In this document: positions 5,755 to 48,420 of the stretch, in pieces
Numbering within the stretch: the first letter of the stretch is position 1
How the letters are laid out: every line of letters starts with the position of its first letter
Assembly: GCF_030684315.1 (NCBI RefSeq)
Contig: NC_081396.1
Coordinates: forward strand, 1,798,001 to 1,862,000
Length of the DNA stretch: 64,000 nt
Reading direction: 5' to 3'
From: Stegostoma tigrinum
Lineage: Eukaryota
Made by a program: the position numbers and the translations under genes
The notes under the pieces: generated by a model
The model's input: the letters and a program-made list of their open reading frames with translations, nothing else
What the model was told of the DNA's origin: nothing
Database searches by the model: none

Positions 5755-5782
5755 CTGAAGATGGGTCTAGGCCCGAAACATC
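5755..5782 (+). ncRNA. Minimal hammerhead ribozyme motif (family 1) in Penelope tail
   Basis: CTGAAGA-T-GGGTC-TAG-GCCC-GAAA-CA-TC; the CGTC to CATC change is consistent with CpG decay. Confidence 0.65.
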
Positions 5783-7588
5783 AGCTTTCCTGCTCCTCTG
5801 ATGCCGCTTGGCCTGCTGTTCATCCAGCTGTACAGCTTGTTATCTAAGCAGGAACAGGGGGCAGTCCCTATACACCTGCATTCCCCATGCAGATGGCCTA
5901 AAGGCACTCTACTTCTTCCTGTCCCGCAAGCCCGACCAGTCCCCCTCTGCTGACACCCTCATCCGCTTAGCCAAACTCGTTCTCACCCACAACTTCTCTT
6001 TCAATTCCTCCCACTTCCTACAGTCAAAGGGGACGGCCATGGGTACCCACATGGGCCCAAGCTATGCCTGCCTCTTTGTAGGTTATGTGGAACAACACCT
6101 CTTCCGTACCTACACTGGCCTAAAACCACACCTCCTCCTCTCACCTCTTAAATTGATGACTGTATCCGCACTGCTTTGTCCTCCCATGAGGAGCTCGAAC
6201 AGTTCATCCACTTCACCAACACCTTCCACCCCAACCTTAAGTTCACCTAGACTATCTCGTTCACCTTCCTGGACCTCACTGTCTTAATCTTAGGCAATCA
6301 CCTAGAAACCAATATCCATTTCAAGCCCAATGACTCCCACAGCCACCCAGAATACACTTCCTCCCACCCACCTTCCTGCAAAAATGCCATCCCCTATTCA
6401 CAATTCCATCGCCTCTGCCGCATCTGCTCCCAGAATGAGGCATTGCACTCCCATACATGTCATATGTCCTTGCTGTTCAAGGACTGCAACGTCCCCCCCG
6501 CAATGGTCAAGAACACCCTCGACCGTGTCTTCAGCATTTGCCGCAACTCATCCCTCACACCACCTCCCCACCATAACAACCAAAAAAGAATCACGCTCGT
6601 CCTCACGTACCACCCCACCAACCTCCGGATCCAATGCATCATCCGATGACACTTCCGCCATCTGCAATCCGACCCCACCACTCAAGACATTTTTCCATCC
6701 CCATCCTTGTCTGCTTTCCGGAGGGACCACTCTCTCCACCACTCCCTTGTTCGCTCCACACTCCCCTCCAGCCTCACGACACCTGGCACTTTTCCCTGCA
6801 ACCGCAAGAAGTGCTACACTTGCCCCCACACCTCCTCCCTCACCCCCATCCCAGGTCCCAAGAAGACTTTCCACATCAAGCAGATGTTCACCTGCACACA
6901 CTGCATCCGCTGTACTCGCTGTGGCCTCCTCTACATCGGGGAAACCAAGCGGAGGCTTGGGGACTGCTTTGCAGAACACCTATGCTCGGTTCGCAATAAA
7001 CAACTGCACCTCCCAGTCACAAAGCATTTCAACTCCTCCCTCCCATTCCTTAGACGACATGTCAATCCTGGGGAGCCTGCGGTGCCACAATGGTGCCACC
7101 CAAAGGTTGCAGGAACAGGAACTCATATTCCGCTTGGGAACCCTGCAGCCCAATGGTATCAATGTGGATTTCACAAGCTTTAATATCTCCCCTTCCCCTA
7201 CTGCATCCCACAACCAGCCCAGCTCCCAGACCTGCAAAGGACCTCTCCTGTTTTTAATCCTCCGCAGGATCCACAGCCTGAACACCCAGTTCTACTCAGC
7301 TTTACTGGATACCAAAAATCGTAAGTACAACAAACTCACTGGCTCCTGCCACCTCAAAAAAGGATTACTGCGCTTCCTAAATCCTGAGCCTGTCCCTGCA
7401 CCTCCCCGACCATGCACCCGCCGCCATTGGACATGGCCAGTGAACCAACCGACGACATCACATCCGCCACCGCCGAGCACACCACTTCCGGGACCGCGAA
7501 CACGACTGCGGCTGCAGTCACCGCCTCCACTCCCAAAACCAACACCACACACATCTCCCTCACTGCTGCTGCCGCCACCCACCCCACT

Positions 7589-7660
7589 CCTCCCACCGCC
7601 GATGGGACTCCACCCACTGCTGACAGAACTCCGCCCACTGCTGACAGAACCCCGCCCACA
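7589..7660 (+). repeat. 21-bp coding minisatellite (x3, PPTADRT) in Penelope N-terminal low-complexity region
   Basis: cctcccaccgccgatgggact / ccacccactgctgacagaact / ccgcccactgctgacagaacc. Confidence 0.8.
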
Positions 7661-10319
7661 ACCTCGAAAGCCAGCAACCTCAGAGAAGACAGCCACACTG
7701 AGCCCTGCCAAATTTTCACCATCCCCCCGACCTCCCACTGACTGAGGATGAACAGTCAGTCCTAAGCAAGGGGCTCACGTTTGTCCCCCTCCACCCACAC
7801 ATCAATGAATACCAGTCATGTTTGGACATCAAGCAGTTTTTCTGCCACCTTTGCCTCCATGCTTACTTCTTTAACCGGGAGCCTAACCCTCCCTCCACTG
7901 ACCCCTTCACCTGCCTCCAACACAAGTCCTCTTCCTGGACACCAACCCCAGGCCTCCTACGCACCCTCATCCTCTAAATCTCCAAATGCCGTCAAGACAT
8001 TAACTGCCTCAACCTCTCCCCTGCAGAACAGGCAGCCCTCTGCTCCAACCCCAACCTCGCCGTCAAACCCGCAGCCAAGGGAGGCGCAGTGAGTATGGCG
8101 CACTGACGTCTACATCGCCGAGGCCAAACGCCAACTCTCCTCCTACCGTCCCCTTGATCATGACCCTACCCCCGACCACCAAACCATCATCTCCACTACC
8201 ATCCATGACCTCATCACCTCAGGGGACGTCCCACCCACAGCCTCCAACCTCACTGTTCCCCAATCCCACTCAGCCCGTTTCTATCTCCTTCCCAAAATCC
8301 ACAAACCTGCCTGCCCTGGTCAACGCATTGTCTCAGCCTGTTCCTGCCCACCAAACTCATCTCCACCTATCTGGACTCCATTTTCTCCCCTTTGGTCCAG
8401 GAACTCCCTACCTACCTCCGTGACCCCACCCACACCCTCCAGCACCCCCAGAACTTTCAACTCCCTGGCCCCCTACACCTCATTTTCACCACTGACATCT
8501 AGTCCCTATACACCTGTATTCCTCATGCAGATGGCCTCAGAGCCCTCTGCTTCTTCCTGTCCCGCAGGCCCGACCAGTACCCCTCTGCTGACACCCTCAT
8601 CCGCTTAGAAAAACTCATCCTCACCCACTTCTCTTTCAATTCCTCCCACTACCTACAGTCAAAGGGGACGGCCATAGGTATCCACATGGGCCCAAGCTAT
8701 GACTGCCTCTTTGTAGGTTACGTTCAGACCACTCTCTCCGTGACTCCCTTGTCCGCTCCACACTCTCCTCCAACCCCACCACACCCGGCACCTTCACCTG
8801 CACCTACACAGGCCCCAACCCCACCTCATCCTCTCACCTCTTAAATTGATGACTGTATCTGCACCGCCTGTTGCTCCCTAGAGGAGCTTGAACAGTTCAT
8901 CCACTTCACCAACACCTTCCACCCCAACCTCAAGTTCACCTGGGCCATCTCCAACACATCCCTCACCTTCCTGGACCTCTCAGTCTCTATCTCAGGTAAC
9001 CAGCTAGAAACTGATGTCCATTTCAAGCCCACTGACTCCCACAGCTACCTAAAATACACCTCCTCCCAGCCACCCTCCTGCAGAATTTCCATCCCCCATT
9101 CCTAATTCCTCCGCCTCCGCCACATCTGCTCGCAGGATGAGGCATTCCACTCCCGCACATCCCAGATGTCCACGTTCTTCAAGGACCACAACTTTCCCCC
9201 CGCAGTGGTCGAGAACGCCCTTGGCCGCGTCTCCCACATTTTCCGCAACACATCCCTCACACCCTGCCCCCGCCACAACTGCCGCAAGAGGATCCCCCTC
9301 ATTCTCACGTACCACCCCACCAACCTCTGGATACAACACATCATCCTCCGACACTTCCACCATCTACAATCTGACCCCACCACCCAAGACATTTTTCCAT
9401 CCCCACCCTTGTCTGGCTTCTGGAGAGACCACTCTCTCCGTGACTCCCTTGTCCGCTCCACACTCTCCTCCAACCCCACCACACCCGGCACCTTCCCCTG
9501 CAACCACAGGAAGTGCTACACTTGCCCCCTCACCTCCTCCCTCCGCCCCATCCCAGGCCCCAAGATGACTTTCCATATTAAGCAGATGTTCACCTGCACA
9601 TCTGCCAATGTGGTATACTGCATCCATTGTACCCCGTGTGGCTTCCTCTCTATTGGGGTAAACAAGCGGAGGCTTGGGGACCACTTTGCAGAACACCTCC
9701 GCTCTGTTCGCAATAAACAACTGCACCTCCCAGTCGCGAACCATTTTAACTACCCCTCCCATTCCTCAGACGACATGTCCATCCTGGGCCTCCTGCAGTG
9801 CCACAATGATGCCACCCTAAGATTGCAGGAACAGGAACTCATATTCCGCTTGGGAACCCTGCAGCCCAAAGGTATCAATGTGGACTTCACAAGCTTCACA
9901 ATCTCCCCTTCCCCCACCGCATCACAAAACCAGCCCAGCCTGTCTCTGCTTCCCTAACCTGTTCTTCCTCTCACCTATCCCCTCCTCCCACCTCAAGCCG
10001 CACCTCCATCTCCTACCTACTAACCTCTTCCCGCCCCCCTGATCTGTCCATCCTCCTGGACTGACCTAGCCCCTCTCCACCTCCCCACCTATACTCTCCT
10101 CTACTGGCTTCATCCCCGAGTCTTTGACCTGTCTCTCTCCTCTCCACCTATCTTCTTCTCTACCTATCTTCTATCCGCCTCTCCCTAATTATTTCAGAAC
10201 CCCCTTTCCCTCGCCCATTTCAGAAGAAGGGTCTGGGCCCAAAATGTCAGTTTTCGTGCTCTTCTGATGCTGCTTCGCCTGCCGCGTTCATCCAGCTCCA
10301 CACCTCGTTCTCCAGGAAA

Positions 10320-10670: not shown

Positions 10671-10939
10671 TTACTTTCACGTGGGGCTGGCAAAGGGGAA
10701 TATGTAAACAATTCATTCAAACCTGTTTTCTCACTTTTTCTTTCTTCCTAATTTATGTGCTGAATTTACAGTTTCTTTTTATTAAATTTCTTTTTGCAGA
10801 ATATTTATTGGACATGACGTGTAGGTGGTAAACGCAATGGGTCAGATCCTAGGACAGCATGTGAAGGATGGCTGACAACTGGGGATATGAGAGGAGGAAG
10901 AAAATAATAATAATTCCACTATGGGGAGAATCTTGTGTT

Positions 10940-11690: not shown

Positions 11691-12186
11691 ATGAGGAGCT
11701 GATCTCTGTTAAGGGAGAAAACTCTGGAAACTGGGTGGAGTGGTTTCACCAACAGTCTCGGAGAAACAAGAGAGGAAAATGTGCTCCACAGAAAGAGGAA
11801 TTGTCTGTTTTCAGCTTCTGTCGTTTGACTGACCTTGTCATTTGTTTTCCCAGGGGAAGAAACTGCAGAGATATGCAAACTTACCAGAACGTCCTGTCAA
11901 GGTTCGACAGAATCACTCAATTCATCATGATCTGAATGTGGCCAGCCATTGACTATTGAAGGAGAAACATTTGTTTTGTCTCTTGGGGGAAAGAATACAA
12001 ATATCAGCACCGAGACAAACACATCAGAAGTGAGTGTTCCAATGCACAGACTGTGAAAGGAACTTCAACCATTCACACAGTTCAAAAACAAAATCACCGT
12101 TTGAGCAGGGAGAGACTGTAGGTGCAGTCTATGCATGGGCAAGTTTCAACTGATCATTCACCCAGAGATATAAATCTGCCTACACC

Positions 12187-13113
12187 ATGGAGAAATTGTG
12201 GAAATGTGGGGACTGTGGGAAGGGTTTCAAATATCCATCCCGGCTGGAAATCCATCAACGCATTCACACTGGGGAGAAGCCATTCACCTGCTCCATGTGT
12301 GGGAAAGGATTTATTGAGTCAAACAAACTTGTCGCACACCAGCGAATTCATACTGAGGAGAGGCCATTCAGCTGCACCTATTGTACAAAGAGGTTCAGAT
12401 CTTCATCTGAACTGAATAAACACCAGCGAGTTCACACTGGGGAAAAGCCATTCATCTGCTCTGTGTGTGGGAAGAGATTCACTCGTTCATCTGGCCTTCA
12501 GTCACACCAGCGAATTCACACTGAGCAGAAACCTTTCAGCTGCACCTCCTGTGGTAAGAGGTTCAGACATTCTTCTGTTCTCATTGTGCACCAATTCACT
12601 CACACCAGGGAGAGGCCATTTGTTTGCTCCTTGTGTGGGAAGGGATTCACTCAGTCATCCAAACTGCGGATCCACCAGCGAGTTCACACTGGAGAGAGAC
12701 CATTCACGTGCCCCTTGTGTGGCAAGGGGTTTGCTCAGAGAGCCCATGTGTCGACGCACCAGAGAATTCACAGCGGGGAGAAACCATTCACCTGCTCTGA
12801 ATGTGGGCAGGGATTCACTCGGTCAGCCAGCTTGCTCATACACCAACGAATTCACAGTGGGGAGAAACCGTTCACCTGCTCAGAGTGTGGCAAGGGGTTT
12901 GCTCAGAAGATCAACCTGTTAACACACCAGCGAGTTCACACTGGAGAGAAGCCTTTCAGCTGCATTTCCTGTGGGAAGGATTTCAGACGGAAATCCACCC
13001 TCATTGTACACCAGCGAGTTCACTCTAGGGAGAGACCATTCACCTGCTCCGTGTGTGGGAAGGGATTCACTCAATCCGTCAACCTAAAGACACACGAGCG
13101 AATTCACAAGTGA
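12187..13113 (+). CDS. C2H2 zinc-finger protein, 11 tandem fingers, no KRAB/SCAN/BTB domain in this exon (ZNF gene A)
   Basis: 308-aa ORF with good Kozak (accATGg); 11 intact CX2CX12HX3H fingers with TGEKP-type linkers; candidate acceptor tttgttttcccAG at 11852-11853; AATAAA at 13188. Confidence 0.92.
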   Translation: MEKLWKCGDCGKGFKYPSRLEIHQRIHTGEKPFTCSMCGKGFIESNKLVAHQRIHTEERPFSCTYCTKRFRSSSELNKHQRVHTGEKPFICSVCGKRFTRSSGLQSHQRIHTEQKPFSCTSCGKRFRHSSVLIVHQFTHTRERPFVCSLCGKGFTQSSKLRIHQRVHTGERPFTCPLCGKGFAQRAHVSTHQRIHSGEKPFTCSECGQGFTRSASLLIHQRIHSGEKPFTCSECGKGFAQKINLLTHQRVHTGEKPFSCISCGKDFRRKSTLIVHQRVHSRERPFTCSVCGKGFTQSVNLKTHERIHK

Positions 13114-13729: not shown

Positions 13730-14891
13730 ACTGGGATTCACAGCTTTTCGAGAACAAGGGAGGAAAAATGTTTCCAGAAAAACTGAAATGGTCTCTTCTA
13801 AATTTCCATGCTGAACTGAGACTGTTGACTTGAATAAACTTTACAGGATATTAGGAATGGAGGGTTCACAGTTTGGAAATTCAATGAAATCGAGTCAAAC
13901 ATTAACAGAACCACTTGATCCATCAGAACTGGTCTTTAAATGTGGAAAGAGAAATGTTTGTTCTGTATGTCTAAGAACGAGTCAAGTATCAGAGATTGTG
14001 TGTATCTTAGTGATTATCTGAGTTAGAGGGTTCCAGGGCAGCACTGACTGTGGAAAGAGCTTTAACCAGTTACACAGCTTGAAAAAAATCATCTCACCAC
14101 TCACAGCGGGAAACACAGTACTCGTGTTGAATGTGTGTGGGGGTGGTGGGGGGGTGGGGGAGGTGGGTGGTCAATGGTTGTCCAGCCTGACACAGAAACA
14201 CTGGCACCATGGAGAAACCATAGAAGTGTGAGCACTGACATAAAGGATTCACTTCTTTGTATTGGCTGGGAAACCGTTGATGCAGTTACACTGGAGTAGC
14301 CGTTCGTCTGTTCAGTATACAGGAAGAGATTTACTCAGCATCTCCCTGATGTCACACCAGTGAGTTCACACTGAGGAGAGGCCTTTTAATTACATTTACT
14401 GTGGGAAGAAATTCAACATCTCATCCACAGCACTGCACCCCAACAAATTCACACAGGGGAGATTCTGTTCGCTGCCCCGTGTCGAGGAAAGGATTGATTT
14501 AATCAATCGACGTGGTTGGACACCAGGGGGTTGATACAGTGGACAGACTGTTCATCTTCCCTATTTGTGGGAAGGGATTCACTCAGTTGTTTGCTCTCCT
14601 GCCACACCACCGAGTTCACATTAAGGAGAACCAAACGAACCACTCTCACCTTGAAAGAGTTTCAGACAGGGAGTTATCCAAATCAAAAATAAAAACTGCT
14701 GGAGAACTCAGCGGGTCTCGCAGCATCTGTGGAGAGAGAATCATAGTGAACATTTTGGGTGCAGGACCCCTTCAGATCCCTTCTGTACACTAACACATTC
14801 AAACTGGGAGAAGCTGTTCCCCTGTTCAGTATGTAGGGATGGATTCACTGAGTTGTGATTCCTGCAGATATATCGGCGAGTTCATAAGTGA
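13730..14891 (+). pseudogene. C2H2 zinc-finger pseudogene, tandem paralog of gene A
   Basis: accATG at 14209 reads MEKP*KCEH*HKGF with many stops and frameshifts. It ends 'cataagtga' like gene A ('cacaagtga'). Upstream 13735-14100 resembles 11745-12110. Interrupted by a Penelope-tail fragment at ~14676-14780. Confidence 0.85.
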
Positions 14892-17660: not shown

Positions 17661-18654
17661 TATATCATAATTTTACAAACCTCAGCCTTGGACACTCCAG
17701 GGAATATCATCCTAATCTATTCAACCTCTCCCTTTAGTTCAAACCTTCTAGCCCTGGCACCATCCTTTTAAATCTCTTCTGAACCCTTTCAACTTTCACA
17801 ACATCCTTCCTATAGCAGTGAGACCTGTATTGCACACAGTATTCCAATAGTGGCTGAACCAATGTCTTTCACAGCCGCAACATGACATCCCAAGTTCCAC
17901 AGTCAATGAACTGACCAATAAAGGCAAGCATACCAAACACCTTCTTCACTGTCCTTATCCACCTGTTGACTCCACTTTCGAGGAACTATGAAACTACACT
18001 GTAAGATCCCTTTGTTCAGCAACACTCCCCAGGACCATATACATTTAATAATAAGTTCTGCCCTGAATTACCGTTCCAAAATGCAGCACCTCACATTTAT
18101 CTAAATTAAACTTTATCTGCCACTCCTCGGTCCAATGATCAAGATCCCGTTGTACTCTGAGGTAACCAACCTCCAGTCTTCTGGCACCTCGCGCCTCTGG
18201 CTATCGATGATACAAAAATCTCAGCAAGCGACCCAGCAATCTCCTCCCTAGCTTCCCGTAGAGTTCTAGGATACACCTGTTCAGGTCCCAGGGATTTATC
18301 CACCTTTATGCATTTTAGAATGTCCAGCACCTCCTTCTCTGTAATATGGACATTTTTCAAGAAGTCGCTATTTATTTCCCCACGTTCGTTATCTTCCATA
18401 TCCTTCTCCACATTAAATGCCGATGTGAACTACTCATTTAGTATCCCCCAAATCTCCTGCGGTTCCACACATGGGTGGGCTTGCTGATCTTTCAGGAGCC
18501 CTACTCCCTTCCTAGTTACCCTTTTGTCCTTAATGTATTTGTAGAATCCCTTTAGATTCTCTCCAATGCTTTTGCCAAAGCTATCTCATCCCCTTTGTGC
18601 CCTCCTGATTTCCCTCTGAAGTGTACACTTACTGTTTTTGTACTCTCCTAGGGA

Positions 18655-19065
18655 TTAAAGTTTTAGCAAAGATTTGGAGCTCATGTGGATGAGGTTGTTG
18701 ACTTGCTCGACAAGCTGGCTTGCTTTCATTCAGATGTTTTGTTACCATGCTAGGTGACATCATCAGTGAGGCTTCCAATGAAGCAAGTTGTTCTACTCTA
18801 CTTGAAATTTATCCTTTCTGGTCCATTATGGTGAGTACTGTTATTTCCGGTTTTGATCTGTATGGGTTTGTACATGGGTTTGCAGACACAAACCCTTACA
18901 GATCAAAACCGAAAATAACAATACTCACAATGGACCAAACAGTATAAATTTCAAGCAGAGTAGAACAATATCGCTTCATCGGAGGTCTTACTATGATGTC
19001 ACCTAACATGGTGACAAAACATCTAAACAAATACAAGCCATGTCGGCAATCAAGTCAACAACCTC
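18655..19065. mobile_element. Fold-back (inverted terminal repeat) non-autonomous Penelope derivative with two hammerhead motifs
   Basis: Arms ~18690-18870 and ~18888-19066 are reverse complements. Hammerhead-like cores at 18733-18766 (-) and 18991-19023 (+). TSD actctcctaggga (18642-18654) / actcttctaggga (19066-19078). Confidence 0.82.
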
Positions 19066-19299
19066 ACTCTTCTAGGGAGTTACTCAATTTCTGCTGTCTA
19101 CATCTGAGATATGCTTCCTTCTTATTCTTAACCGAAACCTCAATTTTTATAGTAATCCAGCATTCCCTACATGTACCAGCCTTGCCCTTCATCCTAACAG
19201 GAACATACTGCCTATGGGCTCTCATTATCTCATTTTTGAAGGCTGCCCATTTTCCAGCTGTCCCTTTACCTGTGAACATCTACCCCTAATCATGGAGTA

Positions 19300-20537: not shown

Positions 20538-20983
20538 AGCATGGTGGCTCAGTGATTAGCACTGCTGCTTTACAGCACCAGGGATCTGGGTTTGATTCCA
20601 CTCTTGAGCAACTGTCTGTGTGGAACAAAAGCAAAGTTGCTGGAAAAGCTCAGCAGGTCTGGCAACATCTGTGAGGGAAAAAAAGAACAGAGTTAATGTC
20701 TTGCGTCTGTCTGTGTGGAGTTTGCACATGCTACCTGTGCGGAGTTTGCACATGCTACCTGTGCCTGCTTGGGTTTCCTCCTACAACCCACTTATGTGTT
20801 GGTTAGATGGATCAGCCATGCTTAATTGCCCATGGTGTTCAGGCATGTGCTGGATTGGCCAAGGGAAATGGTTGCAGGGATAACGTAGGCAGGGGATAGG
20901 TCTGGGTAGGATGCTGTTCAGAGGGTTGGGGTGAAATTGATGGGCTGCATGGCCTCCTTCCATACTGCAGGGATTCTATGATG
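20538..20983 (+). mobile_element. HE1-type tRNA-derived SINE with nested 82-bp Penelope-tail insertion
   Basis: A box TGGCTCAGTGATTAG, B box GGTTTGATTCC, V-SINE core 'ctgtctgtgtggagtttgcac', CR1-like tail 'gggattctatg'. Insert 20625-20706 is flanked by a perfect 13-bp TSD ctgtctgtgtgga. Confidence 0.9.
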
Positions 20984-22083: not shown

Positions 22084-22216
22084 GAGATAATGGGAACTGC
22101 AGATGCTGGAGAATTCCAAGATAATAAAATGTGAGGCTGGATGAACACAGCAGGCCAAGCAGCATCTCAGGAGCACAAAAGCTGACGTTTCGGGCCTGGA
22201 CCCTTCATCAGAGAGG
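22084..22216 (-). mobile_element. Short non-autonomous Penelope-tail element (family 1)
   Basis: Reverse complement of the tail seen at 5755-5845 and 34394-34525; no coding body attached. Confidence 0.85.
22184..22211 (-). ncRNA. Minimal hammerhead ribozyme motif, consensus-perfect core
   Basis: Minus strand: CUGAUGA-A-GGGUC-CAG-GCCC-GAAA-CG-UC. Stem III is reduced to the palindrome ACGU and stem I is only ~2 bp. Confidence 0.78.
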
Positions 22217-22369: not shown

Positions 22370-22710
22370 GAGCAGAAGCTCAACAGCTCTAGCAACATCT
22401 GTGAAGAGAAATTAGGGTTAATATTTCAGGTCCAATTACCCTTCTTCTGAGGAAGCTGCCAAGATTTTGCAGCAATTTCTGATATTTCTTTCCAACGAGC
22501 AGTTGGGAGAAGGACATCAGAGTGACAGACAACCCATAACGTGGGTGCTCGGAATCAGAAACAAAAACAGAAGTTGCTGGAAAAGCTCAGCTGGTTCCTC
22601 AGAGGAAGGGTCATTGCCCTGAAATGTTAGTTCGGATTTCTCTTCACAGATCTGCTGAGATTTTCCAGCAATTTATGTTTTTCTCTCTGACTTACAGCGT
22701 CAACATTCCT
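22370..22710. mobile_element. Two short fold-back Penelope-tail relics
   Basis: 22553-22600 ('aaaacagaagttgctggaaaagctcagc') is inverted at 22653-22690 ('gctgagattttccagcaatttatgtttt'). Degenerate hammerhead 'cagaggaagggtcattgccctgaaatgtta' lies between the arms. Confidence 0.6.
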
Positions 22711-24236: not shown

Positions 24237-26334
24237 TTCAGATGAACCTTCACAGACTCTTCCACACACAGACAATATGTGTTTCTCCCCAGTGTGAACG
24301 GTGCTTTCTCCTTTGATGCTCAAATTTCTGAGATAATTAGATTGTGATAAACAGAGTGGCTGTCAGATCTGGATGTGGTTTCATTTGAATTCTCTAATTG
24401 CACATCAAACTTTCAAGCTGAAAATAACAGTACTGAGAGAGAGAGAAAAAAAAAACAGAAAAACACAGGTTGTGAAACTCAGAAAATTAATCTCGTCAAT
24501 TGTGGATCTAACACTTGGTGAAACTGCTGGATTATCATGAAAATTGAACTGGTTCCTAAATGCCTTTCGGGAAGGGAAGCAGTCAGTGTTTGCACAAAAC
24601 TACAGAGAGAAAAAAAACAAAGGTTGTCAGAGAGTTGCGGCAGCTCCTGTGATGCAAATGTTTCTTGTGAATTTCCTCCAGGTTTTATACAGCAAAAACT
24701 TAAAATTATTTTTGGAACTTTTATAGTCAAAATAAAAAGCAAAGGAAAATGATGCGTACGAGTTTTATTTTTAAAATGTGGAGAGGATTTTTTTTTTCAC
24801 TTGGAGTTCGCGGATGAGGCCTTTCTATGTGTTTGTTGAATGTTGGCGTCTCTAGAGATTTTGTTTGAGACTTTGATCCTTCCAAAAAAACAATGTGAAG
24901 AAAATAATTTGTGAAGGAGGAGACATTGTCTCTCACACGGAGGTTGTGGGAGAGGCCTATCAATAGGTTTCTTCAGAGTTTTTTTCTGTTTTCACAGATG
25001 GAACTCTGAAGATTTTCCTTTTCAACTTGTTTGTTGTAACTGTTTAAATAATGACAGGATCAGGGAATGGCATTTCTTTTCTCAGATCCGGAGATTTGAA
25101 AGCTGACTGATAGCTTTCTCCTGAAGTGCTCTTTCTTCAGTTAATGGGGGTTTCATTTAAGTGATTGATCATTTAAAAAAAAATGTCTAACTTGTTTTCT
25201 CTTTTGCACACTTAACATTAAATTCTGTGGGTAAGGAAGGGCATTTTTAAAAATACATATACACAAGGCTCTTGAAAGAGCTTCTTCCTTTCAAGCTTAA
25301 TGTCACTGAGGGCATACAGGAGACACAAAGTGTGATGGTTAGGAGATTCAGAGAGGTGGTGACACAGCAGAATCAATCAGATAGATGGGTGACTGTCAGG
25401 AAAGAGAAGGAAGTAGTTCAGAAGATTTCTCTGGCTATTCCTCCCTCAAACAGATATTCTATTTGGGATATGTTGAAGAGGGTGTCTCTCAGAGGAAAAT
25501 AAAAGGGGCAGTCAGATCTAGGGCACGAAGAATGAATCTTGTATTAAGCAGGGTTTGTCAAGATATAAAAATATAATTGTTGCAGGGGACTCTCCAGTCA
25601 GAGGCACAGATAGGAGACTTTGTGGCTGTGAGCGTGAATCCAGGGTAGAACGTTGGTGCGAGGGTTAAGGACATTTCAAAATGGTTCAAGCATATTATCA
25701 AAGAGGGGAGAGAGAAGCTCAAAGTTGTTGTACATATTGGTAAAAATGGGACAGTTACATAAAAAGTTAAGGCTTTGAAGAGTAAATATGGGAGGGTAGG
25801 TAGAACGTTAAAAATCAGAAACTCAAAGATATTTTAAAAGCTCTGGTTTACTCCGAGTGCCACATCCTAGTGAGACTAGAAAATAAAAAGATCAGGTAGG
25901 AAAACCAATGGCTGAAGAGATCATACAATGTGCAAGGATTCAGATTTTTGGATCATTGATATCTCTTCTGGGGCAGAAAAGACCTGTTCAAAAGGGGTGG
26001 GTTTCACCTGAACTTGAAAGGGACCAACGTCCTGGTGGCGAGATTTGCTAGTTCTATTTTTGGAGCCTTTAAACTGGTAGAGGAGGTGTGGAGTGTTCCT
26101 ATGGAGTAGTGAAAATAGAAAGACTGATAAGGATGGTTCTGAATTCTAATAAAAGCTTGTTAATTAAAAGAGCACACAAGAGCAAGTTAGAGAATAAAGT
26201 AACTCTGAAGAATCAAACAAAATTTATATAAATGCATGGGGTCTTACAGGTAAGGCTTATGTACTCAGGACATGTTTCGGGACATGGGATTAGGACGTCA
26301 CAGCTATTCCAGAACCTTGGCTAGCAGTTCAATG

Positions 26335-27925
26335 TAAGAGATAACAGCGTAGAGCTGGAGGAACACAGCAGGCCAGGCAGCATCAGGCACTAGGAAAGTT
26401 GATGTTTTGCGTCAGGACCCTTCTTCAGAAATGGGGGAGGGTGAAGGGAGCTCAGAAATAGAGGGGAGGGGCTGCGAAAGGTAGGTGGGATAATAGTGGA
26501 GTGCAAGTTAGCAGTGGTGGGTATTGGTCAGTGAAAGGAGGAGCGGATAGGTGGGAGAGAAAATGATCAGGTTGTGTCAGGTCAAAGAGTCAGGGATGAA
26601 AGGGAGGGTTGGTCATGGGATGACGCCAGGGGTGGGGAGATTTTGAAATTGGTAAAGTCCACATTTAGATCATTGGGTTGTAGGTTCCTGAGGCAGAATA
26701 TGAGGTGCTACTCCTCCACTTTCCAGATGGCATCATTGTGACACTGGAGGAAGCCCAGGATAGACATGAGTGGGAGAGGAGTTAAAATGGTTTGCGACCA
26801 GAAGACGTAATTTGTCGCGGACTGTGCGCAGGTGCTGTACAAAGTGGTTTCTGAACCTCCGCCTGGTCTCACCAATGTACAGGGGGCCACATTGGGATCA
26901 GCGGATGCAACAGACCACATTGATGGATGTGCAGATGAACCTCTGTCTGATGTGGAAGATTTGTTTAATGCCTTGAATGAAGGTGAGGGGGAGGTGTAGC
27001 ACCTCCTGCAGTTGAAGGGAAAGATGCCGGGGGTGGTGGGGCTAGTGGACTGGACAAGGGAGTTGCGGAGAGTGTGGTCCCTACGAAAAGCAGATATAGG
27101 TGGGGAGGGAAATATAACCTTCATTGTAGGTGAGAAAGGTATCTTGGATACTGAGGTTAGTGGAGTGATGTGTGAGGACAAGGAGGATTCTGTCTTTGTT
27201 TTTGTTGAGGGGAGGGGATGTGAGGGGAGAGGTGCGGGAAATGGAAGAGATGCGATCAAGAGCATTTTCAACCACTGAAATATGAGGACATCTGGGATGT
27301 TTGGGAGTAGAATGCCTCAACTTGGGAGCAGGGGATTGCATTCTTGCAGGAATGTGGGTGAGGGGAGGTGTAGTCAAGGTAGCTGTGGGAGTTGGTGGGC
27401 TTGAAATAGATGTTGGGTTTCAAGGCAGTCATCAGAGATGGAGACAGAGAGGTCCAGGAAGGAGAGAGAGGTATCAGAGATGACCCAAGTGAATTTGAGG
27501 TTGGGGTGTAGGTTGTTAGTAAAGTTGATGAACTGTTCAAGCTCCTCGTGGGAGCACAAGTCAGCAGTGATACAGTCATCAGTGTTGCGGAGGAAGAGCA
27601 GGGGATAGTGCCAGTGTAGTAGCGGAAGAGGGATTGTTCCACGTATCCTACGAAGAGGCAGGCACAGCTTGGGCCCATGTCGGTTCCTTAGTTTGTAGGA
27701 AGTGGGAGGAGTTAAATGAGAAAGGAAATGGCATCACCGACACAGGAAATGACATCACCAACCCAAGGAAACCGAAACAGATAAATAGAAAGCCAGACAT
27801 AACACCAGCGCTTCACCGGAGGCTCACTGATGATACTACCTAGAATGGTGACGAAACTTCTGAAAACTAACCTTCCAGCTCAGCGAGCAAACTCACATCC
27901 AGTTAAAGGAGAAGTTATTCAATGT
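26335..27925 (-). mobile_element. 5'-truncated Penelope-like element inserted in CR1
   Basis: Minus ORFs MGPSCACLFVGYVEQSLF and NLHPNLKFTW plus the GIY-YIG region; tail with decayed hammerhead (CTGAAGA AGGGTCCTGACGC AAAA CATC) at ~26400-26428; 'ttcaatgt' at both junctions. Confidence 0.9.
27723..27900 (+). mobile_element. Short family-2 hammerhead-bearing insertion nested in the Penelope element
   Basis: CTGATGA-TACTACC-TAGAAT-GGTGAC-GAAA-CTTC at 27827-27860, homologous to the arms of 18655-19065. TSD agttaaatgagaa (27710-27722) / agttaaaggagaa (27901-27913). Confidence 0.8.
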
Positions 27926-29268: not shown

Positions 29269-32200
29269 GTGGGAGGCTTTCAAAGCGTGATAATGAGAGT
29301 TCAGAGACATTATGTTTCTGACTGAAGTGTGAGGTTGATAAGTGGAGGCAGTAATGGATGAATAAAGATATTAAGCTTCTGGTCAAAAGTTTAAAAAGAA
29401 ACCAAATGTTAGATGTAGACAACTGAGATCAAGTAAATCTTTTGAAGAGGACAAAGGGTGTAGGGACATTCTTAAGAGGGAAATCAGGAGGGCAAACAGG
29501 GGACATGAGATAGCTTGGCAAATAAGGTGAAGGATAAGCCAAAGATATTTGGCAACTACATAAAGAGGAAAAGAGAAACTAGAGGAAAAAAAACTCGGGT
29601 CCGTTAAACATCAAAGAGGTCAACTGAGTGTTGAATCTTAGGAGATGGGAGAGATAATAAACAAATATTTTGTGTCAGTTTTTACTGTGCAGAAAGAAAT
29701 GGAGGCTGGAGAATTCAGGGAAATAAATGTTGCTGCTTTTAAACTGCTTAAAAACAGTTTACGTTACAGAAAATGAAGTTCTGAAGATCTTAGAGAACAT
29801 AATGGTGGATAAACGTCTGAGGAATAAATTGTAGGGCCGTTGGTATATCATCTATCACCATGCGTGAAGTGCCAGGGGACTGAGTGGTGACAAATATTGT
29901 GCCTTTATTTAATAAAGGCTGTGAGGAGAAGCCTGGGAACTGTACACCTGTCATTGTGACATGTCGTGGGTAAGTTGTTGGAGGTGATTCCGAATGATAG
30001 GACTTACATCCACTTGGAGATGCAAAGACTAATTAAAGATAGTCGGTGTGGCTTTGTGGAGGGAAATACTGTCTCACAAACTTGATTGAGGGTTTTTTGA
30101 GGAAATGACCAAAATGCTTAAGGAAGACCGAGTGGTAGACATTATTTAAATGGACTTTAGTAAAGAACTTTGACAATTTTCCACATGATAGACTAATTAG
30201 TAAAGTTAGCTCACATGGGATTTGGGGAATGTGTGCCAATTGGATACAAAATTGGCTCGATGATGGCAGAGGGTGGTGGTGGAGGGTTGTTTTTTTCTTG
30301 AACTAGAGGCCTGTGATCAGTGGTGTTCTACAGTGATTGATATTGGGTCCACTTTTGTTTGTCATTTATATAAACTACTTGGATGAGAATTTATGAGGCA
30401 CAGTTAGTAAGTTTGCAGATGACACCAAAATTGGCACTATAGCAGACTGTGAAAAAATGTTATCTGAAATTACAAAGAGATCTTGATCAACTGGATCATT
30501 GGGCTGAGAAGTTAGAAATGGAGTTTAATTTGGATAAAGGTGAGGTACTGCACTGTAGTAAAACAAACAAGGGTAAGACTTATACAATTAATGGCAGGGT
30601 CTTGGGAAGTGTTGTAAAACTGAGAGATCTAGCATTTCAGGTCAATAAATCTTTGAAATTTGGGTCACAGATAGTCACAGTGGTTAAGGAGATAGTCAGG
30701 GTGGTTAAGGAGGCATCCAATATGCTTGTCTTCATTGCTCAGAGGAAGGAGTATAGGAGTCGGGACATCATGTTGAGTTTGTACAGGATGATGCTGAGAC
30801 CTCTCTGGAAAACAGTGTACAGTTCTGGTTGCAGTTATCGGAAGGATATTATTAAATTGGAGAGAATTCAGAAAAGGTTTACTAAAATGTTGCCAGGCAT
30901 GGAGGGCTTGAGCTAGAAGGTTAGAGTGGGATATTTTTCACTAGAGCAAAGGAGATTGAGGCGTGACTTCATAGATGTTCACAAAATCATTGGGAACACA
31001 GACAAGGTGAATAGCAAGGCTATTTTCCCTTGCGTGGAGGAGTTCAAAACAAAAGGGCATATTTTTATGATGAGAAAAAAGATTTAAAAACGACATGAAT
31101 GGCATTTTTTTTAAATTAGAGAGTGGTTCGCATGTGAAGTGAACTGCCAGAAGCAGTAGATGCAGTTACAGCTACAACATTTAAAAGACATTTGGATAAG
31201 TACATGAATAGGAAAGGTTTGGAGGGATATGGGCCAAAGGCAGGCACGTACAACTGGTTTAGTTTCGGAACAAGGTCAGTGTGGACTAGTTGGAGCAAAG
31301 GGACTGTTTCCGTGCTGTATGACTATGACACAATCAGTGGAAGAGGCAAGAATGAAGAAGTGGCATTTTCTAGATCTGCAACTCACTCCTGCTCCTCTTT
31401 TCTCCCCATCCCCTTCAGTCCCTCCTAATATTCATCCTCGCATTTCCAAGTCTGAATCTGACGTAAAAATACACCAGAACTACCCCACCCGAGGGAAAAG
31501 ACCTTTGTTATTCACCGTATCTATATTCCTGATGATTTTATAAAGCTCAGTGAAGTCACCCCTCAACCTCCACCACTCAAGTGAAAGACGTCCCACCCTA
31601 ACCTTATAACTATCTAAGCAAACACACTGGTTCCCAATCCTCTGTCATACTGGTTTATAACCTCACCAATGGAACTAGCAAAAGCCTCGACAAGGATATT
31701 TGACCCAGCTCTGCCTGGGGCAACCAGTCAGGCTTGTACAGGTTCCAACTTCCATAGAAACTTTCCCAACATCTCAAATTCTAAACCCTTACATAGTTTA
31801 CCATTTCCTCAGACATGCATTCAACTTTATCCTCTTAACTGTGGTGTCTTTGACATTCTTAGGATTACGAATGCTCCACAATGAGTTTGCAAACAACTAC
31901 AGCACTGAAAAACAGTTAGCCAGCAGTTGCAGACAGACAAACTTCCTGCACGCACTGCCATCAGGGATACTGGAAGCATTCCTCATTTCCCGCATTGTGT
32001 AAAATGGGGACATTCCCACATCAGGGGTCTGAGGTCTCCTGTCATGTCTTCTCTCGAGATTATCCTAGTTACTCCATTGAAGAGAATGTAACTGATCTAG
32101 GGATCTTCCTTCTTTTCAAACATAATCAAAAGCTCCTAACTGTACTTAAGCTGAATAGTGCACTTTAAAAAAACTGTAAGAAAATACTCTGCAGGTATCA

Positions 32201-33440: not shown

Positions 33441-34391
33441 TCCTTCAATCATTCGGACCTTCTCGTGAGATGAGTCACTGGAGCAATCTGGCCTCTGCAC
33501 TCGGTTGAGCTTCATCATTCGTAATAACGTGGTGCAGTATCACAGAGCGCAGGGGCTAGTGGACATTCAGGCCGTGAATCTGTGCTCTGTTACTCGAGAA
33601 ACACTGCAAGTCTATTCAACTCCCTTCCTTTTGCCCTTTGCCCATAGCCGTCCAAATCTTCACTAAAATGTTAAATTCCAAGTCTCTTTCGAGAAAAAGC
33701 AACGAATCTGCATCTAGCTGCCGTTCAGACTGTTCCAGATTCTCTCAACTTGCTTAGTAAAATAATCTTCACATTTTCACCCTGTATTATGAGCCAATTG
33801 TCCAAAAGCTGTGTTTACCAAACATATTTTTTCCGTCTCTCTGCAAATGAAATATCCTGAAAACAAATCTACATCTCTACTAAATCATTGCTTCAAGTTC
33901 CCAGCTCTGCAGACAATGATCTGAGATACTGGCATCTTTTGACAAAACAGAAACCTAAATTAATTTATAGATGGGGTGTGTTTTTTGCTGCCCCGATTAG
34001 TATTTATTGTCTATCTTTAATTTACTTGGAGAAAGTGATCCTGAACTTCCCTCTTGAACCTCGTATTCCATGTCTGTAAATCAATCACAGTGCTGTTTAG
34101 ACAATAATCTCCTCCAGCCCCGCAATCTTCCCTATCTCTATAATAGCCTCCAGCCTTCAACCCTCCATCCCTGTGTAAAGGAGCACAGGAAAGTTTATTG
34201 AAAGCACAGCTACAACACATTGCACATTACAGAACATTCCGTTGGTTTACTGAAATGTTATAATGCAATATTTGACATGGAGATTTTGTTAAGGTCTGCT
34301 TGTGTTGTGAGTTTGTAAATTCACTCTGTCACATCTCTCCCTGCGTGACTTTGCATGATGCTCCAAGCACAACTTTTGTGTTTTTGTACTT

Positions 34392-34525
34392 TTCTAATGA
34401 AAGGTCTGGGCCCGAAACATCAGCTTTCCTGCTCCTCTGATGCTCTTGGCCTGCTGTGTTCATCCAGCTCCACACCTTGTTATCTCAGATTCTTCAGCAT
34501 CTGCAGTTCCTATTATCTCTGATAC
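34392..34525 (+). mobile_element. Short Penelope-tail element (family 1) with decayed hammerhead
   Basis: ctaatgaaaggtctgggcccgaaacatcagc...; flanked by acaacttttgTGttt (34369-34383) / acaacttttgCAttt (34524-34538). Confidence 0.8.
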
Positions 34526-36556: not shown

Positions 36557-36652
36557 ATCTGAAGAAAGGTCTAGGCCCGAAATGTCAGCCTTCCTGCTCT
36601 TCTGATGCTGCTTGGCCTGCTGTATTCATCCAGCTCCACACCTTGTTTTCTC
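36557..36652 (+). mobile_element. Short Penelope-tail element (family 1) with hammerhead motif
   Basis: CTGAAGA-AAGGTCTAGGCCC-GAAA-TGTC at 36559-36586, followed by the family-1 tail. Confidence 0.8.
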
Positions 36653-37129: not shown

Positions 37130-38162
37130 CTTTGGGAACCCTCATACACTGCTAACCCCACCCCCTTCCCCCCACAACAGAAATAAGAACAGAGACCACC
37201 GGTCCACACATACCACCTCTACTAAGCTCCAAATCCAGCACATCATGTTCGGCCTCTTCTGCCACCTGCAATCCAACCCCAGCACAAAAGGGATATTTCC
37301 CTCTGTACCCCTATCTGTCTTTATGGGGACCACTCAGTCTGCGACTAGCCTTGTCTGCTCCCCCCTATCCCCTATGCCCACCAAACCTAACACCTTTCCC
37401 TGCAAGTAAAGGGGGTGCCAGACCTGCCCCTATACCTCCCATCCCACCCCCACCCAAGGCCCAGGACAAACTTTCCAAATCCAACAAGGGTTCATCTGTG
37501 TATCCTCCAACCTGCTCTACCGTGCCTATTGCTGTCGATGTGGCCTCCTGTATATCAGTGAGATTAAGTGCAGATGTGATGACCAATTTGCAGAAAATCT
37601 GCACTTTGTATGCTATAATCAACAACACCCTCTGGTTGCCAACCATTATAGCTCTCCCTCCCACTCCCTTGGTGATGTATCCATTCTGAGCCCCCTCAAG
37701 CATCACACTGATTCCACACGCAAACTGGAGGAAGAAAACATATTATTCTTCCTCTGGATCATACCGCCCGATACCCTCAACATAGAAGTCACCAGTTTCT
37801 AAATCTATCACTCCAGGCCTCATTCCATTTCCAAAACCCCTCTCATCCCTGGGTCCTTTACCTGACACTACCTGTCCATCTTCTTCCCCAACTACCTGCC
37901 CTAAACTTCCAACTGACCAATCCCAACTAAGCCCTACTTGCAATAGGGTTAGGGTTAGGTTTAGGGTTAGGGTTAGGGTTAGGGTTCTCACATCTCACCA
38001 TCCCACCTCCCTTTCCCAAGCCCTACCCCTCCTCGGTCTGTTTATTCCCCAGCTCCCTAAACCCCCACCAATCCTAATGAAGGTTCCCAGCTGGAAATGT
38101 GGACTTTCTTGCTCTTCTGATGCTGCCTGACCTGCTGTGTTCCTCCAGCTCCACGCTGTATT
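37130..38162 (+). mobile_element. Penelope-like element 3' part (GIY-YIG + tail), degenerate
   Basis: 'SSNLLYRAYCCRCGLLYISEIK' at ~37502-37567; tail ends '...ctgctgtgttcctccagctccacgctgta'. Confidence 0.85.
37944..37986 (+). repeat. Interstitial telomeric repeat (TTAGGG)~7
   Basis: tagggttagggttaggtttagggttagggttagggttagggtt (one variant unit). Confidence 0.95.
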
Positions 38163-39081: not shown

Positions 39082-39450
39082 ATAACAAGGTGTAGAGCTG
39101 GGTGAACACAGCAGGCCAAGCAACATCAGAGGAGCAGGAAGGCTGACGTCTCTGGCTGAAACCTTTCTTCAGAAATGGGGTATGGAAAGGTGGCTCTGAA
39201 TAAACCGGGAGAGAGGAGGAGACAAATAGAAGATGGATAGAGGAGAAGATAGGTGGAGAGGTGACAGGCAGGTCAAAGAGGCGGGGATGGAGCCAGGAAA
39301 GGTGAGTGGAGATGGGGAGTTAGGGATGGAATAGGTCAGTCCAGGGAGGATGGACAGGTCAAGAGGGCAGGATGAGGCTACAAGGTAGGAGATGAGGTGG
39401 GAGGAGGGGATATGTGGGAGGAAGGACAGGTTAGGGGGGTGAGGATTAAG
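39082..39450 (-). mobile_element. Penelope 3' tail (family 1), minus strand
   Basis: Reverse complement of 5462-5845 / 9950-10310. Confidence 0.85.
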
Positions 39451-39454
39451 AGAC

Positions 39455-44590: not shown

Positions 44591-44949
44591 ACACTATGTA
44601 GCATGTAATGTCAGTATTATATTTTAGTTAAGAGTCAGGTGCTTGGTAAAGTATCTCAAGCTCAAACAATGACCAAAAATTTAAACGGTCTCTCGTTCAG
44701 ATAACAAAGTCATTTTCTGCAGGCTGAAGTTTTTGAGAGGAAAACAAGGCAAGATTTTCTGATTCACAAACATTTAACCGCAGCAAATGCTTGCCTCTTT
44801 GTGAGGAAATTTTAAACAAACAGGCTTTAGAACAATTTGAATCCAGAGTTGGAAAATGAATGTACCGGGACGATTTCAGTAGCAGATTCGATTGGGCAAT
44901 GCCCGACCATTGAATTCATTCAATAAGATGACTTCTTTTTCTGTCACAG

Positions 44950-45851
44950 CCAATTTGGTGGCGACCATAATCCTATCTCGTGAACGATGTGGGCTGTCCC
45001 GGTGCATTACCTACTACCTGGTGGCGATAGCGGTAGCTGATTTCCTTGTCATCATCACGGCTGTCATCTTCAACCGGATTGCTGGTATCTACTTTCGTGA
45101 CAGTGTCTTGTCCACAACGCCTTCTTGTGCACTCAGCACTATGCTGGTGTATGCTACTCGTGATGGCTCAGTCTGGCTGACAGTGGCCTTCACCATTGAC
45201 CGTTTTGTGGCCATCAGCTGTCAGAGCCTGAAGACCAGATACTGCTCTGAGAAAACTGCATTGCTAGTCATAGGAATTGTCTGTGCCCTAAGCTGCATCA
45301 AGAATATCCCTTTCTATTTTATCTACCAGCCACTGTACGTCTTGGATGGGGTGCCCTGGTTCTGTGACATTAAGTTCAGCTATTACAATTGGCCAGCCTG
45401 GCAGGCCTATGACTGGCTGGACCGCATCTTAACCCCCTTTGTTCCCTTCCTCCTTATTCTATTGCTTAATGCCCTGACTGTGAGACACATTCTAGTGGCT
45501 AGCAGAGCTCGCAAAAGACTCCGGGCCAGTGAGAATCGACAAGATGCAGAGATGGCCAATCGCAAGAAGTCCATTGTTCTGCTGTTTGCCATCTCTCTCA
45601 GCTTCCTCTTACTGTGGGTGACCTATGTCGGACATTTCCTTTACGTGCAGATTACAGGTGAGGCCTACTTCACCGGCCTGGATTTTAATGACCCACAGTA
45701 CATCCTTCAAGAGACGACCAACATGCTGCAACTGCTCAGCTCCTGCACTAACATATTCATTTACGCAGTAACACAGACCAAGTTTCGAGAAGAACTGAAG
45801 AATACACTGTTGCAGCCTTTCAGCACCCTCATTGTTTGTTTTAAAACATGA
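44950..45851 (+). CDS. GPR139-like class A GPCR, exon 2 (spliced protein 323 aa)
   Basis: Acceptor cttctttttctgtcacAG|cc. Splicing gives TM1 ...GVPANLVATIILSR, TM2 LVAIAVADFL, TM3 FTIDRFVAI, TM5 LTPFVPF and TM7 TNIFIYAVTQTKFR. The DRF and N.F.Y motifs fit the GPR139/GPR142 family; open to TGA at 45851. Confidence 0.9.
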
Positions 45852-46697: not shown

Positions 46698-46837
46698 NNN
46701 NNNNNNNNNNNNNNNNNNNNNNNNNNNNNNNNNNNNNNNNNNNNNNNNNNNNNNNNNNNNNNNNNNNNNNNNNNNNNNNNNNNNNNNNNNNNNNNNNNNN
46801 NNNNNNNNNNNNNNNNNNNNNNNNNNNNNNNNNNNNN
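46698..46837. other. Assembly gap (140 N)
   Basis: Run of n. Confidence 1.
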
Positions 46838-47275
46838 CTACTCTATTTGTGCAAAGGCATTAACTTGATCATCCAACCTTCTGAGGCACCAACGTACACA
46901 TATTGGAGACAGACCACTCTCTGATTGTGGAAAGGGGTCGTCAGTTGAAACATAACAATAAATTACAAAAGGAGAGGCTGTTGACGTGCTCGGAGTGCGG
47001 AAAGGCGTTCACTCAAGCACGCCACTTCTTGACACACCAACTCATCCATATTGTGGAGCGAGGAGTCACCTGCTCCGAATGAGAGGAAGGGTACAATGAG
47101 TTAACCTGCCAGAGTGTACGCCAGCTGTTAAACGCCCTTTCAGTATCAAAGGCACAATGCAATTATAGCACGCCTCCACACTTCGACTGGGGAGTAACTG
47201 TTCACACGCTCCCAGTGGGAAAGTGAGTCCTCAGTCATCCCATTCCGTGAGATAGCAGCGAGCTCACAAATGACT
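46838..47275 (+). pseudogene. C2H2 zinc-finger pseudogene fragment
   Basis: [24 protein letters not shown]; [30 protein letters not shown]; contains stops and indels. Confidence 0.85.
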
Positions 47276-47377
47276 GCAAGTCTGTAAAACTGTTATTCAC
47301 AACCAGGATTGAAATAAATTGATTCTTAGTGCAGCAAAGCTTAATTTAGACTGTCTTTTGATGCAGTGGGGCTACTG

Positions 47378-47500
47378 CACCTGATGAAGGGACTGCGCTG
47401 AGAAAGCTTACATGATTCCGAATAAACTTGTTGTAATGTCCACCGAGTGTCGTGTGACTTCTAACTTTTTCCCCCCAGTCCAACAGCGGCATCTCCACGC
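47378..47500 (+). mobile_element. Short family-3 hammerhead-bearing repeat
   Basis: cac-CTGATGA-agggactgcgctga-GAAA-GCTT (47381-47409; palindromic AAGCTT stem III, stem II decayed), followed by AATAAA and a tail unrelated to families 1 and 2. Confidence 0.6.
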
Positions 47501-48109
47501 CATCGCTACTGCCCTCTTGCGTCCGGAGCTATCAAAGCTTTTCCGAACGAGTTAAGATGGTATGGGCGGCTCAGAGAACGAAAACTGTATAAAGGCAGAC
47601 ATTTCATTTCTCGTAATTTAACATGTAATGTGTAACAGAATTTAGACACAGTTAATTTGAGGCGGTCATTCTGGCCACTGTTATGACTGACTTGAGCGAA
47701 AGAAATCCTGATTCACAAAGTGGTTGGTGTACGTGTTGGAAGCCAAATTGATTTTCAACAGTGTATTTCTGTGGTGTGAATAAAGCATAACTTGCATCAG
47801 CTGCCGCGCAGAATGAGTTAAAGTAACGGTCTTTGTAAAATCGCCGAATTTGCGAATAACAAATGATGGCTTCTTGTGAATTGTGTTTTATATGCAGAAT
47901 TATTCATTCATTTTATCACACTAACCATCAGTTCATTCTGCCAGTACGAGCTGATTATCCATGAGAAATTTAAGCAACGTATTAAGGTAATCTTTTACAT
48001 ACTGCCTCTATTCTCTCTGAAAGTGGTTGCATGACAGAGCAGATAGTATTCATTTTAAGTATAAATATTCGAACCTGGACAAATCAAATAGAGGGGTATC
48101 CTGAAGAGG

Positions 48110-48420
48110 ACAACAAAAACAAAAAAACAGAAGTTGCTGGAAAAGCTGAGCAGGCCTGACAGCAAAAAAAAAATCAGACGGGCCCTGTGAACTTTCGACA
48201 GAACCGTTGGTAATTGGCAAAAATGTTTCAGAGATAGTCGGAACTGAAGACGCTAGAGGGTCTGAGATAACAAGGTGCAGAGCTGGATGAACACAGCAGG
48301 CCAAGCAGCATCAGAGGTGCAGGAAGGCTGACGTTTCGGGCCTGGACCCTTCTTCAGAAATGCCCCTCTAAATGCTGCTTGGTCTGCTATGTTCATCCAG
48401 CTTTACACCTTGTTACCGGT
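48110..48420 (-). mobile_element. Nested Penelope-tail elements; family-1 copy has an inverted arm
   Basis: 48230-48360 is the minus-strand family-1 tail; 48372-48416 is a plus-strand partial copy of the same tail. Confidence 0.75.
48330..48357 (-). ncRNA. Minimal hammerhead ribozyme motif, intact core
   Basis: Minus strand: CUGAAGA-A-GGGUC-CAG-GCCC-GAAA-CG-UC. Confidence 0.75.

Follow-up and report, generated by a model that had tools for sequence, protein, structure and literature searches.

Hammerhead-bearing ends of Penelope-like elements in a stretch of Stegostoma tigrinum DNA, and a start point shared by many of their short copies

Endonuclease-bearing Penelope-like elements (PLEs) of the Neptune clade are described (PMC8557442, PMC3846280) as encoding a reverse transcriptase (RT), a CX2-5CXXC linker and, at the C-terminus, a GIY-YIG domain, and their copies as showing pseudo-long terminal repeats (pLTRs), partial tandems, heavy 5' truncation, an inverted 5'-truncated copy, a 30-40-bp tail on one end and target-site duplications (TSDs). 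In metazoan PLEs, minimal hammerhead ribozymes have a CUGANGA box, an extra base before stem II, a G10.1-C11.1 pair and a palindromic stem III with zero loop (Cervera and De la Pena 2014, PMC4209133); most are single motifs, ascribed to probable truncated PLEs, and pairs on opposite strands occur as well. For PAc, a Poseidon element of Anolis, it was reported (Frangieh et al. 2024, PMC11167929) that the Penelope protein nicks and extends both strands in vitro, that two internal RT start sites downstream of the hammerhead bound the tail, that uncleaved RNA is used and that neither genomic nor RNA ends lie at the cleavage site. The structural traits of these systems recur in the hammerhead motifs of 64,000 nucleotides of Stegostoma tigrinum DNA (contig NC_081396.1, positions 1,798,001 to 1,862,000; hereafter the window). 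No shark is named among the hosts of minimal hammerheads in the results and discussion of PMC4209133.

The motifs are very probably the hammerhead-bearing pLTR ends of several PLE families, the short copies being dead 5'-truncated insertions that the RT/GIY-YIG protein of each family made anew, and not a self-propagating short interspersed nuclear element (SINE). As judged from sequence, each hammerhead family is the 3' pLTR of an endonuclease-bearing PLE; families 1 and 3 were assigned by their motifs to a putative Neptune type and family 2 to a putative Poseidon type, which it would share with PAc. The element class would then be one already known, namely the truncated ends of Neptune- and Poseidon-type elements. 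In comparison with the Neptune-clade descriptions the load of family 1 is very high (about 8% of a genome sample), and a sharp pile-up of 5' ends and coupled arms of inverted pairs have no counterpart in the passages of PMC8557442 and PMC3846280 that were consulted. The family-1 helices, with 4 bp in stem II and 2 bp in stem I, are shorter than those of the Schistosoma type (7-8 and 4-5 bp; PMC4209133).

Hammerhead motifs and the elements that carry them

Within a copy, the C of the CUGA core was numbered 0, which places the predicted cut after +27 (cleavage site +28). A strict descriptor of the minimal hammerhead (CUGANGA, a stem II no shorter than 4 bp, GAAA, a palindromic stem III of 0 or 2 pairs, UH) was matched twice in the window, against a mean of 0.015 and a maximum of 1 in 200 dinucleotide shuffles. 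The two matches are the family-1 copies that the first-pass annotation had called intact, at 22184-22211 (-) and 48330-48357 (-), and their core boxes, stem II, stem III and UH bear out its identification of Penelope-type minimal hammerheads with a palindromic stem III. All 12 places cited there hold a motif or a decayed form of it. At least three families are present, as had been proposed; the core at 38074, the ninth of family 1, had been overlooked, and so had a fourth family. The genome sample consisted of 137 stretches of ten kb each, taken from large contigs at round positions (1,369,800 bases, evenly spaced and not formally random), and here the descriptor gave 65 matches against 0-1 per shuffle (5 shuffles). 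A scan of the window with Rfam, the models of which do not reach such minimal forms, returned no hammerhead and only palindrome-driven microRNA matches far below threshold.

Stem I, put at 2-3 bp in the first reading, is indeed 2 bp in family 1 (49/65 intact cores of the sample) and 3 bp in family 2, but reaches 5 bp in family 3. Hand counts of stem changes, made with no statistical control, gave only one-sided changes or CpG decay within families. Between families stem III has C-G against G-C in family 3, pair 2 of stem I has C-G against U-A in family 4 and some old family-1 copies, and the sequences of stem II differ yet still pair. The folding z-scores of monomers were not significant and no hammerhead fold was found among the predicted monomer structures. 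The earlier doubt about monomer activity is shared; single minimal motifs have been described as inactive and dimers as weak (PMC4209133; summarised in PMC6765202).

The identity of the families was derived from the DNA to which such ends are joined. For family 1, a relative contains an open reading frame (ORF) of 795 amino acids with RVT_1 (E 2.2e-6), a CX4CXXC linker and GIY-YIG (E 0.0028). Four of four long loci proved to be full units of the form pLTR-ORF-pLTR, 3.3-3.5 kb in length, in which each of the two repeats holds a hammerhead and the frame is broken, and the 5' end of the ORF was preceded by pLTR sequence in 30/30 loci. The DNA upstream of family-2 relatives encodes a Poseidon-type GIY-YIG domain (Pfam E 6e-4) without Zn linker, the hammerhead lying directly at the ORF end, and that of family-3 relatives is decayed Neptune-like GIY-YIG coding sequence. 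The CX2-5CXXC linker before GIY-YIG is intact in family 1 and decayed in one family-3 relative. With the window frame 9106-9954 a first look at the genome gave 287,717 candidates, of which 137 were scored at about 85% identity. A Pfam search with eight short PLE or long interspersed nuclear element (LINE) fragments of the window gave no match, nor did a search of PDB with the long ORF. Unlike the situation in PAc, the AUG within the family-1 core opens a frame of just 13 codons, and the long ORF appears by eye to begin downstream of the tail. In the young family the junction of pLTR and ORF (L155:1811-2000) has two short upstream frames; an in-frame TGA, situated where the tail ends, lies between the second of them and the long ORF (three loci, by eye). 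Five loci on small contigs (L122-L126), about 99% identical over 3.1 kb, represent a multi-copy segment with a family-2 end and not independent insertions.

Short copies, their 5' edge and the inverted pairs

The sample contained 320 family-1-type 3' segments, or about 234 ends per Mb, pair arms being counted singly and a few family-4 ends cross-matching; family 1 made up 8.0% of the sampled sequence, and extrapolation gives about 750,000 3' segments genome-wide. Families 2 and 3 contributed 33 and 15 segments. After removal of 10 unmapped segments and 8 at edges, 302 family-1 copies remained: 203 started at or after -12, 27 extended to the untranslated region (UTR) only and 72 to the ORF. The first-pass annotation had regarded most copies as pieces of 80-400 bp without ORF, and in the window 10/13 cores of families 1-3 do lie in ORF-free pieces no longer than about 400 bp; RT and/or GIY-YIG coding DNA adjoins the remaining three (10221, 26428, 38074). 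Mobilisation by Penelope RT/GIY-YIG, also proposed there, is supported by TSDs far above the controls: duplications of at least 9 bp flanked 50/69 inverted inserts (control 1/68) and 26/85 solo short inserts (control 1/83). TSDs of inserts measure 10-17 bp. The TSDs around short inserts indicate that these were separate insertions.

The further claim, that the short copies form a separate non-autonomous SINE-like class, was not supported. Each short unit corresponds to the final 90-130 nt of an autonomous element. Short and long family-1 copies have the same two 3' ends at about +92 and +126 (about +76 and +112 in family 2), and the same subfamily variants, no short-specific one being seen in the two variant windows that were compared. 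Their divergence is similar (short versus long 3.0% vs 2.3% in young and 6.5% vs 5.2% in old copies), starts do not lie at the cleavage site, and tails were present in 32/81 short and 13/42 long copies (p 0.43). Neither tail frequency nor a 3' overhang into the ORF, features that might tell priming in the 5' pLTR from priming in the 3' pLTR, set short copies apart from long ones; ends beyond +128 are mostly chance alignment.

After insertion the cores decay neutrally, with no sign of selection. At non-CpG positions divergence of the core and of downstream sequence was 3.2 vs 2.4% in young and 6.1 vs 6.1% in old copies, CpGs decayed fastest (12% young, 32% old), and the core was kept in 51/97 young and 12/59 old copies. 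This bears on the very improbable idea that some copies are ribozymes exapted by the host for cutting its own transcripts. The 65 intact cores in 1.37 Mb extrapolate to about 150,000, many of which presumably sit in introns. Neutral decay argues against such a use, as do the 2-bp stem I, the zero-loop stem III, the predicted monomer structures, the inactivity of single minimal motifs (PMC4209133) and the dependence of the Anolis motif on its protein (PMC11167929). Any ribozyme function would probably be confined to transcripts of source elements and be dimer- or protein-assisted.

The 5' ends of family-1 copies were not evenly placed: 99/302 fell at -5..+4, whereas the interval +5..+34 held 58 and the interval -55..-11 held 13. 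Per nucleotide, 15 ends were counted at -5..-1 and 0.23 at -50..-11, a cliff far sharper than random truncation predicts. Within -5..+4 the ends spread base by base, and they go on continuously in either direction, as far as +60 and -1500. Family 4 has the same edge, 2/28 cores clearly keeping upstream element DNA (an indicative count made with no long reference); the edge is loose in family 3 (6/14), and in family 2 no such edge was seen (2/33 at -10..+4). A splice acceptor near -23 was considered as its source and rejected, there being no pile-up of ends there. A G precedes CTCT-CUGA in 4,821 occurrences against 2,302 for A+T (36- versus 35-letter patterns) and in 5/7 young and 1/3 old solo copies. 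A cap-derived origin of this G was not retained, since 29/41 such junctions were classed as inverted and several others as parts of long copies, either tandem or mutated, and since in solos with a TSD the G is often part of the target.

No peak was found at the cut site among the family-1 5' ends (8/302 at +25..+29), and templates made by cleavage and starting at +28 were discarded for that reason. The same count makes it hardly credible that the copies are non-LTR retrozymes, that is, hammerhead-to-hammerhead monomers that are cut by the ribozyme, circularised and re-inserted, with a predicted start at +28. Retrozymes (bioRxiv 10.64898/2026.07.22.740005) have the type I hammerhead in common with the copies described here, are likewise non-coding and derived from pLTRs, and have been reported in one chondrichthyan. 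They are, however, tandem arrays of hammerhead-bounded monomers, whereas the present copies are dispersed as solos or head to head; neighbours are mostly head to head, and the same-strand spacings below 1.2 kb (18/83) show no repeated period.

Head-to-head pairs consisted of one tailed and one tail-less arm in 68/70 cases, which makes quantitative a rule known qualitatively as a tail on one end only (PMC8557442, PMC3846280). The 5' ends of the two arms correlated (rho 0.65) and lay within 15 nt of each other in 42/68 pairs (shuffle mean 20.7, maximum 33); among long pairs 7/16 agreed within 30 nt, where 1.3 were expected, and in 16/68 pairs both arms ended at -10..+4. The coupled lengths suggest that both arms came from one template. 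Neither the pile-up at the 5' edge of the hammerhead nor the coupling of the arms was found in the literature searched; shark families may be listed in the supplements of PMC4209133 and of bioRxiv 10.64898/2026.07.22.740005.

These regularities can be read in the light of the Anolis work, which, by analogy from a Poseidon element, would account for the two 3' ends, for the pairing of tail with no tail and for why ends are lacking at the cut site (PMC11167929). A full unit runs pLTR (with hammerhead and tail), ORF, 3' UTR, pLTR (with hammerhead). The insert ends at about +92 and +126 would correspond to two internal RT start sites, and both nicked target strands would be extended on one RNA, the two complementary DNAs (cDNAs) then being joined head to head. 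The absence of ends at the cleavage site suggests that the template is uncleaved RNA. The stop at -5..+4 may arise because the RNA starts near -4, to which we give close to an even chance, or, with a somewhat smaller chance, because RT is released after a hairpin which the core region is predicted to form by pairing of 0..5 with +24..+29. Both models fit the starts of the 5' pLTR at 30 ORF-bearing loci (7 at -10..+10, 13 at +26..+105, 10 upstream). For the first model, both family-1 subfamilies have an initiator-like sequence centred at -4. The internal pLTR promoter of Penelope in D. virilis starts further upstream of the ribozyme (PMC2377424, PMC4209133).

A somewhat unlikely variant is that inverted pairs arise when a single cDNA folds back, or by self-priming on an antisense template (PMC3846280). 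It would alter the mechanism only and leave the identity of the elements unchanged, so that its probability overlaps with that of the preferred explanation. Fold-back would explain why the arms of a pair resemble each other more than random copies do (0.90 vs 0.80), why the 5' ends of the arms are coupled and why the junctions are often palindromic. A copy made in this way would nevertheless have to terminate precisely at the second of the standard 3' ends in 68/70 cases, and the predicted hairpin would give arms at about 0 and about +30, whereas both are commonly near 0. Extension of both strands, on the other hand, was demonstrated in vitro (PMC11167929).

An independent non-autonomous element that spans -4..+126, has its own promoter and is re-copied from short masters by the Penelope protein is decidedly unlikely. 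Such a SINE-like unit would suit the very high copy number, the TSDs of the short copies, the initiator-like sequences and, in families 1 and 4, the sharp 5' boundary along the edge of the hammerhead. Against it, the 5' ends vary from nucleotide to nucleotide and continue to +60 and -1500, no short-specific variants were seen, half of the short copies are one-off inverted pairs with differing junctions and family 2 lacks the boundary. A run of four T at +31 in the young subfamily argues against transcription by RNA polymerase III. The internal promoter of D. virilis Penelope (PMC2377424) and trans-mobilisation through pLTRs (PMC3846280) speak for such a unit, whereas the short copies have lost the part of the ORF 3' of the tail, a part that is required by the Anolis protein (PMC11167929). 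Quite unlikely, too, is the more specific proposal of a complete mini-replicon over -4..+126, present in hundreds of thousands of copies, with an internal promoter, a capped RNA polymerase II start 4 bases before the core, an RT dimer that primes both strands at the two tail sites, run-off at the RNA 5' end and re-copying of solos. Its run-off end would resemble strong-stop DNA, and with re-copying of solos it is much less likely than run-off alone, to which slightly less than an even chance is given.

Several observations weigh against the reading of the short copies as truncated insertions from full-length PLEs. The sample covers 0.04% of the 3.2-Gb genome and large contigs only, and a comparison of two variant windows could miss a lineage made up of short copies alone, if it had few changes of its own. 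The divergence of short copies is slightly higher than that of long ones, 59/85 solo short copies are without a clear TSD, a defined short master RNA would give the same 5' cliff, and for pLTR cis-sequences by themselves mobilisation in trans has been shown (PMC3846280). The RVT_1 and GIY-YIG scores of the 795-amino-acid frame are below the Pfam gathering cut-offs.

Individual copies and neighbouring features in the window

The first family-1 copy is a Neptune-type 3' UTR with a tail-less pLTR end (5464..5845, +), in the core of which (5755-5782) G16.2>A has broken stem III. A 5'-truncated RT/GIY-YIG fragment (5865..7225, +; 82% to a full unit; tblastn) follows, in tandem upstream of a near-full-length frameshifted element of 3.1 kb (7223..10312, +) with RT, Zn linker, GIY-YIG, 3' UTR and a decayed core at 10221-10248. 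The short copies comprise a young tailed one (22086..22216, -) that starts about 5 nt before CUGA and has the intact core 22184-22211, a tailed one with TSD-like flanks and a decayed core from 34394 (34391..34517, +) and a tail-less one (36558..36651, +) whose core, from 36559, has the stem II and III changes G10.1>A and C15.2>U. The cores at 5755 and 36559 had been called near-intact; both are recognisable, but their stem changes make them fail the strict descriptor. A further tail-less 3' UTR and end (39082..39436, -) has a decayed core at 39145-39172. Of the family-1 cores, 5755 and 39172 carry 3' UTR, and bare ends are found only at 22211, 34394, 36559 and 48357. The last belongs to a head-to-head pair (48233..48415) made up of a tailed minus-strand arm with the intact core 48330-48357 and a tail-less plus-strand arm without core (48361-48415), the pair being nested within an element of family 4, at its 3' end. 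Two older fragments retain 3' ends: a family-1-related RT/GIY-YIG fragment (26330..27722, -; decayed core 26401-26428) and a GIY-YIG fragment (37143..38160, +; decayed core from 38074), within the 3' UTR of which lies a short (TTAGGG)n-like run at about 37970-38005.

All three family-2 copies are broken. Two form a Poseidon-type head-to-head pair (18652..19067) with a tailed minus-strand arm (core 18733-18766) and a tail-less plus-strand arm (core from 18990), flanked by a 14-bp TSD-like repeat read by eye; both cores have G12>A, and that at 18990 is also short of one core base. The third is a 5'-truncated tail-less copy (27719..27903, +) at the 5' end of the 26330-27722 fragment, with 13-bp TSD-like flanks read by eye and a core, from 27827, in which G10.1 and stem III are broken. 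Family 3, a second Neptune-like family, is represented by one short copy (47374..47497, +) that has kept its core (47381-47408) and has a broken stem II. The fourth hammerhead-bearing family (stem II of 5 bp, stem I of 4 bp; 29 matching cores in the sample) is present as decayed minus-strand ends at about 14682-14790, 20624-20700, 22400-22450 and 48100-48210, the last belonging to an old related element (48100..49949, -) with an RT fragment at 48861-49949. At 60736-62451 (+) an old frameshifted RT-GIY-YIG fragment has about 31-50% identity to the family-1 protein, and no hammerhead end was recognised downstream of it.

Other contents of the window are four LINE RT fragments, which we take to be CR1-like, at 3269-3676 (-), 18139-18429 (-), 30443-30916 (+) and 56248-56895 (+), and intact and decayed arrays of C2H2 zinc fingers at 41-643 (+), 12154-13113 (+), 23241-24362 (-), about 14290-14850 and about 46850-47240. 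A single-exon G protein-coupled receptor of the rhodopsin family lies at 44883-45851 (+; 7tm_1 E 6e-23). A V-set exon resembling immunoglobulin or T-cell receptor genes (51309-51740, +; E 7e-7) was unexpected next to zinc-finger genes.

Significance for Penelope-like elements

If the mini-replicon proposal were true, a hammerhead-bounded SINE-like class would recur in several Neptune families and not in Poseidon. With the preferred reading as truncated pLTR ends the value of the copies lies elsewhere: they form a very large fossil archive of a mechanism that is poorly understood, and the shared start point is likely to record how a Penelope element copies itself. From the tail/no-tail rule, the coupled arms and the stop at the 5' edge of the hammerhead instead of at its cut site, sharp predictions follow that the in vitro assay already established for Penelope could address. 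The same regularities bear on whether the hammerheads of PLEs ever shape the template for transposition.

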